From Escherichia phage EK5, in the sequence record PQ805429.1: a stretch of 64,000 nucleotides of DNA. One strand, written 5' to 3'. Below, one piece after another: positions 7,901 through 31,704 of the stretch. The notes below the pieces were generated by a model, which was given only the letters and a program-made list of their open reading frames with translations, was not told the DNA's origin and did not search any database. Numbering within the stretch: position 1 is the first letter of the stretch; each line of letters begins with the position of its first letter. The translations under genes and the position numbers were made by a program.

Positions 7901-9328
7901 CATCTTCTGTAGTTCAGCAGCTTTCTCTACAAAGTTATTAAAGTCTTCACCATCACGAGCTTTGAATCGATTTGCTTCATTGTAGAAAGTCTTGTAAGCA
8001 TCAATGAAATCACGGTCAGCTTGTGTACGATTCTTAATATCAATCGGACTACCAGTAAAATCACCAGAAGCTCGGAGAGAAGTTAATTCACGGTCTAGGT
8101 TATCTAGAACATCTGTAAGAGCTTTCGTATTGTCTTTGGTGTAATCAGCCATTGCATCCTTCATAGCAACAGCCTGCTTCTGGTTGTGCTCGTTGTCAGC
8201 GAATGCTTTACCACGAGTCTTAGCAGGAGAAGCTAAAGGGTTGAGGCCCGGAATGTTGGAATGTTCTTTCTGAACGGAAGCAGCTTTCTCAGCACGAGCT
8301 TGGTCAGTATTAAGAATACGCTGAGCAGCAGGAGAGTCTACAGCAACAGCATCTGTAATACGGAATCCATTCTCATCCAGAAGGTTCAGAGCAGAAGCAG
8401 CGTTAGCAGTTTCAGCTTTAGAGTAAGCTTCTTTCAGTTCATCAATATTCTTAGCACTACGAATTAGTTCATCATCAGCAGCAATATCAGTCTTCGCATA
8501 CTCTGGAGTGTTCTTGAAGACAGTAGAATCCGGACGGCTAATCAAACCATGAACCCCACCAACTGCACCACCGAATGCAGCACCCATAGCCCCTTCTTCG
8601 ATAACACCTTCCAATGTCTTAGCTAGATCGTTGTCGTCGCCATACTTGTTCTGAACTTCAGCAGCACCCACAAGAGCACCACCTTTAGCACCAGCCACTG
8701 CGTTACTAGCAACGTTCTGACCAATACGTCCAAGTGTGGACTCAGCTGTACCAACAGCACCCGGAAGGATTCTCTGAGCCGCATAGTTAGCACCACCAAC
8801 TAAGGCTGCATCTAGAATAGACTTATCCTCTCCCTCTTCAGGGGTTTGGTCTGCATATGCACGACCTGTCTCACGACCTGCGATGATAGCAGCAGCAGCC
8901 AATGGGTTAGCAACTGTCAAACCGATATCACCAGCAACGCCAGCATACTGACCGACAGTTTTACCAATCCCATCCTCAATCTTATCCATACGTTCTTTCA
9001 GAAGGTTCTGAGAGTTCTCTTGGATACGCTTACCATAACTAGTTTGTGCTCCAGCTAGATTCTCACCAATCTCAACTAAACCACCAATACCTTTAGCAGC
9101 ACTAGCTGCAATATTTGCACCACCAGATTGAAGAGCATTTGACACACCTTGAGCAAACTCACCTATAGCACCACGTTCTTCTTGTTGTGGTTGTGCTACT
9201 GGTTGTTCCTCAGGAATAGAGCCACCTGCTGCCTTATATTGTTCTCTCATTTGAGCTTGTTGCTCCGGAGAGGCATTCAGATACGCAGGAGCTTTGGAAG
9301 CTTCTTCCCACGGTTTAATGTTAGCCAT
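4907..9328 (-). CDS. Large virion internal/ejection protein or tape-measure-like protein (1473 aa)
   Basis: Start at MANIKPWEE with SD AAAGGAG; long coiled-coil E/K/R/A-rich regions plus a G/A-rich hydrophobic segment; last gene of the late block. Confidence 0.55.
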   Translation of the reverse strand: MANIKPWEEASKAPAYLNASPEQQAQMREQYKAAGGSIPEEQPVAQPQQEERGAIGEFAQGVSNALQSGGANIAASAAKGIGGLVEIGENLAGAQTSYGKRIQENSQNLLKERMDKIEDGIGKTVGQYAGVAGDIGLTVANPLAAAAIIAGRETGRAYADQTPEEGEDKSILDAALVGGANYAAQRILPGAVGTAESTLGRIGQNVASNAVAGAKGGALVGAAEVQNKYGDDNDLAKTLEGVIEEGAMGAAFGGAVGGVHGLISRPDSTVFKNTPEYAKTDIAADDELIRSAKNIDELKEAYSKAETANAASALNLLDENGFRITDAVAVDSPAAQRILNTDQARAEKAASVQKEHSNIPGLNPLASPAKTRGKAFADNEHNQKQAVAMKDAMADYTKDNTKALTDVLDNLDRELTSLRASGDFTGSPIDIKNRTQADRDFIDAYKTFYNEANRFKARDGEDFNNFVEKAAELQKMADNVSPEMKKAIGGLKKLKGMPEGFNPIQDAYTLNNTAKFMSNQDRGWTSLTDDGFREASSPSLVMNTLGAAKYALNRFSSQRARSQRVKQQESNSEAIRSLARGDLEVARAKSTADEARAKMEEEPVVDDIKFKTQNDVETEPVREPSSSTVTEENLPSSTPQETPLTARDLVAQRRAIRQAEQRRAEEEAAAAQEAPVEQAPRAEPLPARNPLEERRAMEQQRAQEEAAQAPEPTVEEPTVKAEPLPARAPKAPKEAVQDVKPASGVERLAAMSSAARQATKDRAERFARSLYSKAAKAKATAENFLAYKGDPKELMRRIRQEDNAINTERHEEMARNQLASQQGIATAKNNTVRTNFAEWVKERGLPEDIATKALRAEEKGLGGNVTNLDSLKRRAERLYQKQREDEFDRLYQQALEENKAFDKKDAPKLVDQKKELQSEIDALIDSEPLRPAQKDAMRKLMNDFVDGKFKSSEKAGREEALEVGQMKDIWDGFINTYNREVNAFNKANKNSQYEAAAKHLQAREERLATLRKKAQARSDAKAAVENERKTLEAIAAQKSEIEKMMEGLPKPVREAQESRTLKQLAAHHDKNSPVPPEKFRSYIERIHNAESDYLDRQRRLTDAEEDARQAKWNKMYEQAEEMNRKFDVDKRVKRSEELKAAQERENDLMAVQRQRDDIHRRLMRTMEDKGISREDAEAFAGSYMDNRYALLEKPMTPTEHQNARSRIEADVEKFAKKYESMTPIEKEIVKVTGDTEGKLDNLDADTRKAIEEAQKVDSDIKKLQEEELEMEKIRSALPDDEKSQANSDILESIKQQEEVFADKVEKAFLSGKSLDELASVAEVLDRVHGADKAGNNRRFVRALQTAAENKKKYGDNPVAWFSADDYSAIAKLGASSAGGNKSRALEKIFGSTAEQAKSKLLGRDDVAKMRRVIEENPDIKIPSYKTTNRTEYLQFLEKFNDEGKPKIKRGSLSEKLERSKRQSRLRVRVRPKE

Positions 9329-25661: not shown

Positions 25662-26414
25662 TTATACACGAGAAGTACGAATACCATAAATATCAGGCAA
25701 GCTGCTCTGAAGTCGAGTCATGTTATTCGGAATTGCGATAGGTGAACCTGAGTACTCTTGTTTCTTATTCTGTTCTACCATTTCATCAAGGATAGCTTTT
25801 CCTAATGCTGACCATTTCTGAACACCATTATCATCTTGAACAAAGAGACAAGCATGACGTAGGGTGAAGTACAGAAGAAGTTCTGGTGCTATAGTAAGAA
25901 TAGTACTAGTATCTGTATCTTCATGGAATTCCGGTGGGTCTGCATAATAGCTAAGAATCACTGAGTTTTCTGCTGGAATCAAAGGGCTTCCATCATCAGG
26001 GTAGTACGGAGTATCTGCTTCGATGCTAGGGTAGAAAATGAAACGACTACCGAAACGAGCAAAGTTGACAGGTTGGTTATTCCAGTGAGATGGGTTAATT
26101 GTTCCATGCTGTCTACGATAGCTAATCTCTTCAGGAGAGGTTACTTGGAAGATTGTGCCATCTTTGGCTCTCATCATCCATTGAGCTTCTAAGTAATCAG
26201 GAGGAATGTAAGCTACTCCATCTTTAATATCTAAATACACTTCTTTTTCCAGAGGAGGAATACGTAAGTTACGATAAATCTCTTTCTCTGCAAAGTTAAT
26301 AAAGTTTGGAATTTGATTAACAAATTCGTCATCGTCCCTATCTGCCCAGAGGGCCACGGCCTTCTTTAGCCACCCATAGGTATTGATGGGGTATTGAACA
26401 TCTGGCATTGCCAT
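25662..26414 (-). CDS. Virion structural protein (possible adaptor or tail tubular component)
   Basis: Position between capsid and tail-fibre genes; SD AGGAGG; terminator and TAATGTATA motif upstream. Confidence 0.4.
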   Translation of the reverse strand: MAMPDVQYPINTYGWLKKAVALWADRDDDEFVNQIPNFINFAEKEIYRNLRIPPLEKEVYLDIKDGVAYIPPDYLEAQWMMRAKDGTIFQVTSPEEISYRRQHGTINPSHWNNQPVNFARFGSRFIFYPSIEADTPYYPDDGSPLIPAENSVILSYYADPPEFHEDTDTSTILTIAPELLLYFTLRHACLFVQDDNGVQKWSALGKAILDEMVEQNKKQEYSGSPIAIPNNMTRLQSSLPDIYGIRTSRV

Positions 26415-26515
26415 AGGTTGTCCTCCTTGTTATATGTAGACAAAGAATATACATTACACACTGGCTTGTATAGGTCTTAAAACGAAAAAACCCCGCCCGA
26501 AGGCAGGGTCTAGTT

Positions 26516-27028
26516 TTAAGCAGGTGTTACACCAGTAAAAGTGCATGTTGCATTGATGGATGGGTCAGCTGTCAAACTTGCTTGAACAGTAACTTCGCCA
26601 CTTGCAGCAGCATCTAAGGTTAACGCACCAGCGGCGCTTACTGTACCGGCTTCTGTAGGAGTTACAACAAACGTGTAATCCGCAGCAGCAGAGTTAGTTA
26701 CAGTAAACATGGTAGTGAAATTAGTGGAGGAACCACCAGTTTTACCCGTAATTGGACCCTTAGCTACAATAGTAGGAGCAGGAGCAACAATTTCAGAAAT
26801 GGTTGCTGTACCAGAAACACCTTCTAAAGTTGCAGTAATGGATACATCAGTGGATTGAGACGCACTCGGAGCAGTATACAAACCCGACTGAGTGATAGAA
26901 CCACCTCCTGTCACTGACCAAGTAAAGCCAGTTGTTTCGGTAGAACCATCACTTTTCTCCGCGCTTGCAGTGAACTGCCGAGTAGCCCCTGTCTCTAGAC
27001 TTGCTAAAGACGCAGGGCTAACAGTCAC
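26516..27028 (-). CDS. Ig-like domain ORF, probable -1 frameshift extension of the major capsid protein
   Basis: Big_2-like T/S/A/G-rich sequence; no SD before its GTG; the frame is open across the capsid 3' end and is the -1 frame relative to it. Confidence 0.55.
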   Translation of the reverse strand: MTVSPASLASLETGATRQFTASAEKSDGSTETTGFTWSVTGGGSITQSGLYTAPSASQSTDVSITATLEGVSGTATISEIVAPAPTIVAKGPITGKTGGSSTNFTTMFTVTNSAAADYTFVVTPTEAGTVSAAGALTLDAAASGEVTVQASLTADPSINATCTFTGVTPA

Positions 27029-27039
27029 ACTGTCTACTG

Positions 27040-28098
27040 TTACGCCGCCACCTTTCCCGCAGCAGTGAACAGAACGCCAGAAGCATACGGGTTGCGGTGA
27101 CGCAGACCAACTTCCATTTCAATCATCCACTTCTCGTAAGAACCATCTTTAGCCAGTTCAGTACGTTTCGGAGCACGCAGAACCATCTGAGTCCAGTCAG
27201 CGCTACGGAAGAAGTAAACTGCATCGGTAGGCATCCAACGGTTAACGATGATTTTGTAGCTCTGGCCCAGCGGGTCAGTGATGCTGTTAACTTCGTAGAT
27301 GAACTGCTTGGTGTTCTCAAAGATACGCTTACGTGAACCCTGAGTATTTTCTTGCAGACCAGCAAAGATCTTAGCATGAGCCGGGTTAATCATGATGATA
27401 TCTGCTTCAGAACCAGCGGTATACAGTTGCAGAGTCATATCAAAGATATCAGCTTCGTCGAAACCAATGTTAGTGGTCGGGTTAGAAGCATTCTGTGCAA
27501 CTTTAACAGTTACTGCACCAGTGTCCGGGTCAGCAGGACCATTCTTGGTCTTGTCAACAACGCCACCAGCCAGACCACCGTGAGCACACAGGAACTGGAA
27601 TGCACCAGTCTTACGAGCTGCATGGGTGTCATTCAGACCAACAACAGCAGGATCAGTTGCAGAGTTAGTCAGATACTGGTCAGCCAGAACGTCGGTACGA
27701 GCCTGACCGGACAGAAGGATTTTCTCGAGGTCACGCTTGATCTCTTTACCTTTCTTCTCCAGCTGATACATCAGTTCACGACCACGACCGTAGTTAGCGG
27801 TGGTGTTAGCAGTATCAGAAACACGAACAACCTTACGCAGAATCTGAGTAACGTTAGATTTGATAACAGTCGGTTTCATTTCACCGTCTTCAGCACGAGA
27901 GCCTTCGACGTGTGCGTTATTACCGTCAACGCTTGCCAGTGCATCGGTCTGCCAGCTAAAGATAGTCTGGTTGATAGACTCTTTACCGGTCATAGATACG
28001 AACGGGGTATCCTGAGGGGACAGAACAGAAATCCAGTTAGCAAAAGAAAGTTTTTTACCATTCTGGTCATACGATACAAATAAAGTTGGATTAGCCAT
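27040..28098 (-). CDS. Major capsid protein
   Basis: Follows the acidic scaffold gene; strong SD AGGAG; 352 aa. Confidence 0.7.
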   Translation of the reverse strand: MANPTLFVSYDQNGKKLSFANWISVLSPQDTPFVSMTGKESINQTIFSWQTDALASVDGNNAHVEGSRAEDGEMKPTVIKSNVTQILRKVVRVSDTANTTANYGRGRELMYQLEKKGKEIKRDLEKILLSGQARTDVLADQYLTNSATDPAVVGLNDTHAARKTGAFQFLCAHGGLAGGVVDKTKNGPADPDTGAVTVKVAQNASNPTTNIGFDEADIFDMTLQLYTAGSEADIIMINPAHAKIFAGLQENTQGSRKRIFENTKQFIYEVNSITDPLGQSYKIIVNRWMPTDAVYFFRSADWTQMVLRAPKRTELAKDGSYEKWMIEMEVGLRHRNPYASGVLFTAAGKVAA

Positions 28099-28138: not shown

Positions 28139-29215
28139 TTAATCTACGAGGAATTTGAATGCGTCTTCGTGACTAACGCGACCCTCTGCGAATGCCTTGG
28201 CAACCTTAGCGTTGTCGGGCTTATTGGAAGTGCGAGACTTTGCAGCATCAGACTTCACAACCTTGCGTGGAGCACCGGGACGTTTAATCTTAGCCATCAC
28301 CTGTTGCTTACCTTTATCAAATTGGTATGCTTTGTGGAGAGCTAGGAAAATAGACGGACGGTTTTCCTTCAATACTTCTTCTTCAGTAGCACCTAAGTCA
28401 ATTGCGTATTGCATTAAGTTTTGATATAAGTTTTCATCCCAATTTGGAATCTCACGTTTCAGAATATTAACACATTCAATACTCTTGGCTTGGAAAGCTT
28501 CCTGCTCTTTAGCTGCTGCTTCCTGCTTAATACGGACCTGAGCCTGTTCAAGCTGTTGACGGCGAGCTGTGTACTTCTCTAGGAAACGTTTGTTTTCAAC
28601 ATATGCTTGAGGATCTTCTACTGCAAGCTTGTCCCAATCAAAACCGTTATAATCTTCAATTACTCGGTCTGCTTCTAAAGACGCTAGTTCTAATACATCC
28701 TTCAAACCTACTACACGTTCCTCGAATGCTTCCATATGACGCTGAAGAGTTGATTCTCGTTCTGTCATATCAGCACCAGTAAGATAGCCATTAGAAAGTT
28801 CTTCAATAGTCATCTCACGTCCATCAGGAAGGGTGATAACGGTTTCGTAGTCTACATCAAAGACTTCACCTTCACCGTCAGCAGAATCATCTTCATACTC
28901 TGCATCGCTTGAATCTTCTTCCTCTTGTTCTTCTGCTTCAGAGGATTCGTCTTCATCTTCTTCGACTTCGCCTTCCTCTTCACGATCTTCCCAACCATCT
29001 TCATCTTCGAACTTAAGCTCATCGCTTTCACCGAGAAGGTCGGTATCAAAGTCGAAATCGTCACCGTCTTTTTCCGGGAACTCATCGTCAATGTCCACTT
29101 CTGGTTCTTGTTCAGATTCTAATCGACCGAGTTCTTCTTTGAAAGAACCTTTCAGGTCATCCAGTTGGAGGAAAGATTTAAAATCGTTCGGGTCAATATA
29201 ATTATCTTGTGGCAT
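28139..29215 (-). CDS. Scaffolding protein
   Basis: Extremely acidic D/E-rich N-terminal half and helical C-terminal half, between portal and capsid genes. Confidence 0.55.
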   Translation of the reverse strand: MPQDNYIDPNDFKSFLQLDDLKGSFKEELGRLESEQEPEVDIDDEFPEKDGDDFDFDTDLLGESDELKFEDEDGWEDREEEGEVEEDEDESSEAEEQEEEDSSDAEYEDDSADGEGEVFDVDYETVITLPDGREMTIEELSNGYLTGADMTERESTLQRHMEAFEERVVGLKDVLELASLEADRVIEDYNGFDWDKLAVEDPQAYVENKRFLEKYTARRQQLEQAQVRIKQEAAAKEQEAFQAKSIECVNILKREIPNWDENLYQNLMQYAIDLGATEEEVLKENRPSIFLALHKAYQFDKGKQQVMAKIKRPGAPRKVVKSDAAKSRTSNKPDNAKVAKAFAEGRVSHEDAFKFLVD

Positions 29216-29460: not shown

Positions 29461-31704
29461 TTACTTTTTACTTCCAAGACGTTTGCCTGGAATCCGTGAA
29501 TCTTTGAGAGAAGCTTGTTGCTCTTTCTTAGTTACATTAGCTTCTTTCTTTTGGAGTTCCAAAGTTTTGTCCTGAACACGAGCTTGCTGAACAATCTTCT
29601 CTTGGTCTACCTGATGAGACATAACCATCTGCAATTCTTTCAGTACAGATTCATACTGACGGACCTGCTGTTGCATAAGAGCTAACTTGTGCTTAGCTTG
29701 TTCCAGAGTTGCATTGTTATCCTCTTTACGGTTTTCCAGAGTCATAGCATCTGCTGCATTTTCTTGCTTGAACTGCAACTCTTCCTGACGCAGACTTAAC
29801 TCATCCGCAGCTTTCTGCTGTTCGAATGTAGTACGTTCACGTTGGTCGAATGCATCAGCAATCATCTTCTGAGAGGAAGCCTGTACGTTCTCAACCTGAG
29901 CTTTAGTCATCTCGAGCTGGAGGATTTCCATCGGAGAAGGTTCTGGAGGCTGATACTGTTCCAGAGGCAGAAGGTATTTATGAGTATCTTTAATACCCAT
30001 CAACTCAAAGATTTGTGCAGTCATGTAACGGTCTTGCTCCAAACCAAAGAGAGGCGCTAACTGTGCATCTGCTGCAATCAGCTGTTTCAAGCTAATCAGT
30101 TTCTGTGCACGTTCTGCTTTCTCGTTAGGAGAGATAGCTACAACAACTTGGAGGTTGTGACGAGCTGGTAATTGTTTTGGATTTACCTGAATCATACCAC
30201 GAGGGGTTTGTACCTCGATAGGAACTTCACCATTTTCTCTGATAAGGTTGTAAATACCACGCATCAATTCAACCATACCATTGTGAGCAATGTTACGACA
30301 TACCATACGGAGACGGTTCTGTGCAGCATTCATCATCAAGCCTACGGTTGCATAAGCGTTATCATTCTTAAACACATCAGGGTTGATACCCATGCCTAGT
30401 TTGGTTACACCGGTACGTGTCTCTTTAAGCTCCTCAGACATGCCTAGAAGGCCGTCAATACCTTGAGGTAGGTTATGGTATGGGAACAGGTCAATAGCGT
30501 CCTGACGTTCCATTTCAACCACTCCACCGGGACGGTTATCAAGCAGAGAGCGACGGTCGTATGCACCAACAAGAGCTTTGTATCGACCATAGTTAGCATT
30601 GTTGACGTTATCAATATAACCACGAACTAACGCGGTACGTAAATCTTGAATATCTTTCGTAATGTCATAGACCGATTGACCATAGAAGGAACCCGGAATC
30701 GGATACGGACAGAAGGTTACAAACGGAATGTGAGTTACTTCTTCAGTGTGAAGGATATGCTCACCAGCTTGGATAACCTGATAGAGTTTAGACTCTTTAT
30801 TCTTATCTAGAACACCAGTACGAATGTAGTGCTCGTAAACCCAAACCATAGAAGCGATATCTTCGGTATCTGTACCAATATCAGCATCAATGTCCTGACG
30901 CCAGTCAGTACGAGACCAAGCAACTGTAGATTGAGTGGTGTCCATCGTATCTGTCCAGTCGTTGAATGCTTCAATCTCATCTTTAGGGAAGCCCATAGCA
31001 ACCAGATCTTCTTTAGAACGACGTACACGATGACAGAAGTATTGTGCATCTGCAAAAGAGGTAGCATGTTCGTCAACAAAGATTTGCTCTGAAGGAACAT
31101 ATTCAACTTTCACACGTTTAACAGTTTGTTCATAAGTAACTTTAACATCTACTGTACCATCTTCATTTTCTTCAGTGAAGATTTCCAGATTCTTGAGTCC
31201 ACCAGCTTCTAATCCCTGAACATATGCAGCCAATGCTTCCGGTGGTACACCTTCAGCTTCTTCAGTTTGAGTAGAAGTTTGTTCATCCCAATAATACTTG
31301 ATAAAAGAGTTACGAGTAACCAGACATTCTTGTGCAGCAGAAGAGATAATATTGTATCCCGGATTGTCACGCAGAAGAATTTGGTTAACCAATTTAGTTG
31401 CTACATCAGCAGCATCAGAATCCTGTTGGTTGTCAGCTACGAAAGTAACTGCTTCATCACCAGAACAGAATACGTTAATAATATCTTGCAATGTACCGTT
31501 AACAGATTCCCAAACAGTACGATCTACCCAACTAGAGCTGCCAGCAGTTACTGGTGCAGGTAAGTTACCATAGAAATATTCCCAAGCTTCACGAGCATAA
31601 CCCTTAACAGCCATGTCCACGTAGCCTTGAGCGTAATTAAAACGACGTTGAAGGTCAACACGTAACTCGTCCAACACCTCTTCACTATATTTTTGCTTAG
31701 CCAT
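29461..31704 (-). CDS. Portal protein
   Basis: 747 aa directly downstream of large terminase; helical K/E-rich C-terminal tail. Confidence 0.7.
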   Translation of the reverse strand: MAKQKYSEEVLDELRVDLQRRFNYAQGYVDMAVKGYAREAWEYFYGNLPAPVTAGSSSWVDRTVWESVNGTLQDIINVFCSGDEAVTFVADNQQDSDAADVATKLVNQILLRDNPGYNIISSAAQECLVTRNSFIKYYWDEQTSTQTEEAEGVPPEALAAYVQGLEAGGLKNLEIFTEENEDGTVDVKVTYEQTVKRVKVEYVPSEQIFVDEHATSFADAQYFCHRVRRSKEDLVAMGFPKDEIEAFNDWTDTMDTTQSTVAWSRTDWRQDIDADIGTDTEDIASMVWVYEHYIRTGVLDKNKESKLYQVIQAGEHILHTEEVTHIPFVTFCPYPIPGSFYGQSVYDITKDIQDLRTALVRGYIDNVNNANYGRYKALVGAYDRRSLLDNRPGGVVEMERQDAIDLFPYHNLPQGIDGLLGMSEELKETRTGVTKLGMGINPDVFKNDNAYATVGLMMNAAQNRLRMVCRNIAHNGMVELMRGIYNLIRENGEVPIEVQTPRGMIQVNPKQLPARHNLQVVVAISPNEKAERAQKLISLKQLIAADAQLAPLFGLEQDRYMTAQIFELMGIKDTHKYLLPLEQYQPPEPSPMEILQLEMTKAQVENVQASSQKMIADAFDQRERTTFEQQKAADELSLRQEELQFKQENAADAMTLENRKEDNNATLEQAKHKLALMQQQVRQYESVLKELQMVMSHQVDQEKIVQQARVQDKTLELQKKEANVTKKEQQASLKDSRIPGKRLGSKK

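Follow-up and report, generated by a model that had tools for sequence, protein, structure and literature searches.

Attachment of an Ig-like tail to the capsid protein by ribosomal frameshifting is already known for phiEco32-like phages. The shift is credited to the 2008 work on phiEco32 by the papers on SU10, Privateer and YF01 and by the RefSeq record of phage Paul (NC_070992), in which the capsid gene is given as a joined coding sequence (CDS) with the note 'Frameshift at GGGAAAG' and the phiEco32 product is treated likewise (citing PMID: 18294652). For SU10, the genome paper describes slippage at GGGAAAG, 'as in phiEco32', by which the Ig-like CDS is joined to the major head protein, and its proteomics table lists forms of 38.5 and 55.4 kDa, the 55.4-kDa entry being 'CDS 9+10' (PMC4281155). 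The same signal was reported for Privateer, where the gel showed two bands and mass spectrometry identified the minor capsid protein in virions; the authors add that the frameshift product has been observed in phiEco32 and SU10 (PMC7881722). In the YF01 paper, the frameshift is considered a feature of the whole Kuravirus-like group (PMC9965538).

The earlier note on this DNA had drawn a parallel to T7-like phages, and the literature draws it likewise. Like the shift predicted in EK5, those of T7 10A/10B and T3 gene 10 are -1 shifts in short-tailed phages, located towards the end of the capsid gene; in T7 and T3 they yield a C-terminally extended minor capsid protein at roughly 10%. The T7 slip site is G GUU UUC. 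Both the slip site and the capsid family differ from those of EK5, whose capsid protein belongs to SU10_MCP, and the T7 extension measures about 53 aa compared with 178 aa in EK5. The extension of T3 gene 10 is Ig-like (PMC9965538).

The window, that is, the whole 64-kb stretch of EK5 DNA analysed here, is by its sequence that of a Kuravirus (a phiEco32/SU10-type coliphage of the Gordonclarkvirinae); full-length matches were obtained with YW01 (99.6% identity), phiEco32 (98.7%) and SU10 (98.3%). A 24,953-bp record deposited as 'Mycolicibacterium phage J1' (MZ417522.1) has 96.6% nucleotide identity to the coliphage capsid region and is probably mislabelled or contaminated. The structural genes of EK5 are ordered as follows:

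29461-31704, minus strand: portal gene, first in the structural gene order
between portal and scaffold, minus strand: small open reading frame (ORF)
28139-29215, minus strand: scaffold gene, from the ORF list
27040-28098, minus strand: major capsid gene (0 frame), 352 aa, 38.7 kDa, HK97 fold
26516-27028, minus strand: 'Ig-like' ORF, with its start as annotated at GTG
26478-26511, minus strand: intrinsic terminator, 3' of the Ig-coding frame
25662-26414, minus strand: adaptor gene, followed by the tail fibre gene

Only one terminator-like site with a real T tract was found on the minus strand, 3' of the Ig frame (26511-26488), and the SU10 and Paul records annotate a terminator at the equivalent position. 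The interval from the capsid stop to the Ig region contains no terminator-like site with such a tract. In Bas86, an HNH endonuclease gene (locus L011, 3626-4138) is located between the Ig-coding region and the adaptor gene; it is absent there in EK5.

The capsid protein matches the Pfam family SU10_MCP (PF17236) with 258.8 bits (cut-off 24.1) and over its full length (residues 1-352) differs from the solved SU10 major head protein 7Z45 at 3 of 352 positions (E=9e-236). On the minus strand, the 3' end of its gene reads ACT GCT GCG GGA AAG GTG GCG GCG TAA and contains these elements:

27052-27058, minus strand: slippery heptamer G GGA AAG (X XXY YYZ), with the 0-frame codons GGA AAG
27042-27040, minus strand: capsid stop codon TAA

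The heptamer and its X XXY YYZ register, as claimed in the earlier note, can be read directly from the sequence, and the capsid gene has no other in-frame X XXY YYZ motif. It had been placed seven codons before the stop; its closeness to the stop holds, but the count does not, as three sense codons follow the heptamer and GGA is the fifth codon before TAA. The string GGGAAAG occurs 8 times in the window versus 7.3 times expected, a chance frequency, so that the case depends on context and not on frequency. What gives the slip site weight is the frame and position in which it lies, together with the open -1 ORF and the conservation of the site.

In the -1 frame, the sequence continues into the Ig-coding region:

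26516-27058, minus strand: -1-frame extension, 180 codons from the heptamer, with its TAA stop at 26518-26516
27044-27052, minus strand: Gly-Gly-Gly linker (GGT GGC GGC) in the -1 frame, overlapping the last three capsid codons
26804-27037, minus strand: Big_2 bacterial Ig-like domain (PF02368), residues 8-85 of the -1 product
26522-26773, minus strand: second beta-rich module, with a weak Big_2 match of 17.8 bits, below the cut-off

The -1 frame is open over 26 codons overlapping the capsid C-terminus, in agreement with the stretch of about that length noticed before, and stays open to the TAA at 26518-26516. Likewise, the extension of roughly 180 aa proposed previously was recovered as 180 codons from the heptamer. 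In the predicted fusion, 178 aa follow capsid residues 1-349; the product has 527 aa and 55.6 kDa, a net gain over the 352-aa capsid protein of 175 aa and 17.0 kDa. The predicted trans-frame junction reads ...FTAAGK-GGGVTVDSVTVSPASLASLETGATR, with tryptic cleavage after ...TAAGK. The Big_2 match scores just above threshold (24.8 bits versus a cut-off of 22.8, E=2.2e-5) and covers profile positions 2-75 of 79; the second module is probably a divergent Ig-like domain. A single-sequence AlphaFold model of the 180-aa extension is all-beta at low confidence (pLDDT 54.5), too low to serve as a query for fold comparison. The best database match to the fusion is the 892-aa frameshift-annotated capsid protein of YF01 (86% identity, 99% coverage).

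Compared with phiEco32, SU10, Paul and YF01, EK5 has the same gene at 98-99% nucleotide identity, the same heptamer 3-4 sense codons before the stop, a Gly-rich linker and a Big_2 extension. Nothing material differs but the length of the extension (the YF01 protein totals 892 aa) and an interruption in the SU10 record. The Proteus phage Privateer (Grimontviridae) resembles EK5 in its SU10_MCP capsid protein, its GGGAAAG and a 171-codon -1 extension with Ig domains; it differs in that the heptamer directly precedes the stop, the capsid is only about 57% identical and the extension consists of I-set and Big_2 domains, where EK5 has Big_2 and a divergent module. As the same GGGAAAG shift has been published and annotated in GenBank, the finding in EK5 is correct but not new.

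We consider it highly likely, judging from sequence comparison, that programmed -1 frameshifting by ribosomes reaching the 3' end of the major capsid gene produces a capsid-Ig fusion. Most ribosomes would terminate at the TAA (27042-27040) and release the 352-aa HK97-fold capsid protein. A minority would slip back by one base with GGA (Gly) in the P site and AAG (Lys) in the A site, and both tRNAs would re-pair with GGG and AAA, a step that a downstream hairpin may stimulate. The shifted ribosomes would then read the Gly-rich linker, the Big_2 Ig-like domain and the second beta-rich module. The resulting 527-aa, 55.6-kDa fusion could co-assemble as a minor capsid species, with its Ig-like part presumably displayed on the outside of the head.

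Directly observed are the anatomy of this site, its conservation and the lack of signals for independent initiation. The heptamer is kept in 10 Gordonclarkvirinae (ShigP1, phiEco32, SU10, Paul, NJ01, EP335, Bas86, EK010 and IMG/VR contigs) and in two Privateervirus loci, Privateer and Cronobacter phage CsaP_009. Every relative that has G GGA AAG lacks any other in-frame X XXY YYZ motif in the capsid gene. In the Gordonclarkvirinae relatives, three IMG/VR contigs among them, the heptamer lies 3-4 sense codons before the capsid stop, and linkers of 3-4 G/S-rich residues are found between capsid and Ig-like domain. The -1 frame in these relatives spans 180-547 codons, the SU10 record excepted: the extension has 180 codons in EK5 and phiEco32 and 374-547 in EP335, Bas86 and Paul. 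In Privateer and CsaP_009, which belong to a different family (Grimontviridae), the heptamer is retained even though the C-terminal capsid residues differ; the start of the open -1 frame coincides with the heptamer in Privateer and lies 6 codons before the capsid stop in CsaP_009.

An alignment of diverged relatives shows a coding signature in the 30 codons that begin at the capsid stop. Variable columns at positions 1, 2 and 3 of the -1-frame codons number 8, 5 and 21, respectively, and the variable codons comprise 13 with synonymous and 10 with residue-changing differences. Across these 30 codons, the -1 frame contains no stops, and both other frames do. The third-position bias and the stop-free -1 frame indicate -1-frame translation of this stretch, ahead of any start codon. 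The -1 frame evolves under purifying selection, with changes biased towards third positions.

These data bear on the possibility that the Ig-like region is a separate gene, translated by re-initiation 11 nt past the capsid TAA at a GTG and released as a free Ig-like decoration protein of 170 aa and 16.5 kDa, which would attach to the capsid without a covalent bond. Its proposed start is:

27026-27028, minus strand: GTG, given in public records as the start codon of a separate 'Ig domain containing protein'

Most public records annotate the region in this way, the GTG is close to the capsid stop, and the authors of the SU10 cryo-EM study considered that gp10 might be a minor capsid protein held in place loosely (PMC9509320). 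Against such a start, no Shine-Dalgarno (SD) sequence precedes GTG 27028: its anti-SD duplex has a calculated energy of -1.7 kcal/mol, compared with a window background median of -2.2 kcal/mol and with -6.2 to -11.4 kcal/mol for six neighbouring genes. The earlier note's remark that the Ig-like ORF has no SD is thus borne out. The codon itself is not conserved: of nine relatives compared, seven have GTA or ATA instead (GTA in Paul, EP335, Bas86, EK010 and the IMG/VR relatives L019 and L020; ATA in NJ01), and the next NTG in those seven occurs 17-48 codons into the domain. Moreover, both the coding signature and the Big_2 homology reach upstream of the GTG, the domain match starting 3 residues before it; the heptamer is conserved across subfamilies; and related phages possess in-frame capsid-Big_2 fusions. 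GTG 27028 is probably an internal Val codon, and we regard separate initiation as very improbable. With a conserved slip site, an unconserved start codon and a coding signature that begins upstream of any start, the sequences favour the -1 frameshift fusion, as the earlier note had suggested.

SU10 provides the material for a second alternative, in which the heptamer and the open frame are a decaying or non-expressed remnant kept by descent, and the long form is little made or not incorporated. The cryo-EM structure of SU10 revealed a uniform capsid, with density for neither a minor capsid nor an Ig-like component (PMC9509320). According to the YF01 authors, SDS-PAGE of SU10 gave no band of the long form, which they attribute to a premature stop in the -1 frame (PMC9965538). 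The SU10 record indeed has a 1-nt insertion about 23 nt after the heptamer (KM044272, about 8413-8436; locus L003, 2167-2190), where GACACTGTCTACTG stands in place of the GACAGTGTGACTG of EK5 and phiEco32, and its -1 frame is closed after 13 codons. This insertion fits the lack of the long form in the cryo-EM data but is at odds with the 2014 listing of a 55.4-kDa form; either the sequence is in error or the frame has really been lost. SU10 may be an exception among these phages. An insertion of this kind is absent from EK5, where the -1 frame is intact, as it is over 171-547 codons in EK5 and every relative examined but SU10. That Privateer virions contain the long form (PMC7881722) and that changes in the -1 frame, which is under purifying selection, fall mainly at third positions also speak against decay, and the exchange and expansion of the extension among relatives implies that it is used. 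A remnant is accordingly a most unlikely explanation, and expression of the fusion by frameshifting is preferred.

Two regions downstream of the slip site could fold in ways relevant to the shift:

27016-27046, minus strand: predicted hairpin and candidate frameshift stimulator, starting 6 nt after the heptamer
26968-27032, minus strand: larger stem-loop, alternative or adjacent, inside the Ig-coding region, found by minimum free energy (MFE) and alifold consensus folding

The core of the first is a perfect 7-bp helix of UAACAGU (27042-27036) and ACUGUUA (27025-27019), 9 nt downstream of the heptamer. Folding predicts this hairpin for EK5 and for five diverged relatives; its calculated energy alone is -10.8 kcal/mol. 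All four third-codon positions in the core are invariant compared with variation at 21 of the other 26 (hypergeometric P=0.0046). Single-sequence fold z-scores are weak (-0.85 to -2.7), and no covariation was found in this hairpin among the relatives compared. Privateer and CsaP_009 have a hairpin as well, beginning 7 nt downstream of the heptamer. In EK5, the capsid stop codon UAA supplies the first three bases on the 5' side of the 7-bp core. The larger stem-loop, in which pairs 72-86 and 73-85 are changed on both sides, begins at least 19 nt after the heptamer and was rejected as a canonical stimulator for being too far away, a downstream structure of this kind being expected 5-9 nt from the slip site.

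A third structure, a 7-bp hairpin of CUGCUGC and GUGGCGG (27065-27045), has the heptamer as its loop and was also remarked on by the SU10 authors (PMC4281155). It was rejected as a canonical stimulator because its 5' arm would lie inside the ribosome at slippage; the pairing is retained no more than partially in Bas86, EK010 and L019, and may be a mere by-product of Ala codons followed by Gly codons. The hairpin at 27016-27046 is a better candidate for a stimulator. No upstream SD-like stimulator in the style of dnaX was visible in the 20 nt before the heptamer.

Related phages arrive at capsid-Ig proteins by other routes. Salmonella phage 7-11, GAP52, BUCT695 and PKM.Lu.22.1 share with EK5 the end product, SU10_MCP joined to Ig-like domains, but differ in having a duplicated gene, no heptamer and no recoding: a second SU10_MCP paralogue is fused in frame to Big_2. 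These paralogues are located at:

L006, 4020-5777: second capsid paralogue of Salmonella phage 7-11
L013, 4026-5126: second capsid paralogue of GAP52
L014, 4031-5263: second capsid paralogue of BUCT695
L016, 4022-6358: second capsid paralogue of PKM.Lu.22.1

Each lies directly downstream of the main capsid gene and has its own SD; in 7-11 it follows a terminator. The protein database holds many metagenomic SU10_MCP proteins of 412-775 aa, three of them with a Big_2 annotation.

A further arrangement was found in Lahexavirus-like phages:

L007, 3909-4184: Aeromonas phage 4_4572
L025: LAh_8
L022-L024, 4412-4930: IMG/VR loci

No X XXY YYZ heptamer is present in the capsid genes of 4_4572, LAh_8 and L022-L024. 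These genes end in ...G GTA AAG NNN TAA, and their -1 frames, open for 87-168 codons, code for either Ig_3/I-set or a pair of Big_2 domains. A GC-rich hairpin with a tetraloop follows in L022-L024, beginning 6 nt past AAG. The record of 4_4572 annotates only a short separate ORF; the sequences used for the other loci came without annotation. As far as the genomes indicate, Lahexavirus-like phages probably use an unannotated -1 shift relying on A AAG; no paper naming 'Lahexavirus' was among the matches listed in the frameshift literature. A joint picture, which we offer tentatively and rate at somewhat below an even chance, is that covalent attachment of Ig-like domains to part of the capsid subunits would be ancestral in the whole SU10_MCP clade and achieved interchangeably by slippage at G GGA AAG in Gordonclarkvirinae and Privateervirus, by non-canonical slippage at G GUA AAG in Lahexavirus-like phages, and by duplication and fusion in 7-11, GAP52 and BUCT695, with the stop-codon hairpin as the stimulator in Kuravirus.

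To what had been published, the present analysis adds that the annotated start codon is not conserved, that relatives have a duplication route to the same product, and that a Lahexavirus-like shift is probably present and unannotated. The Kuravirus CDS recorded as 'Ig domain containing protein', with a GTG or an internal ATG start, would be better represented as a joined, frameshifted capsid CDS, the form already used in the records of Paul, Privateer and YF01. Ig-like extensions of the capsid may adhere weakly to cell surfaces or mucus, a candidate function of relevance to phage therapy.
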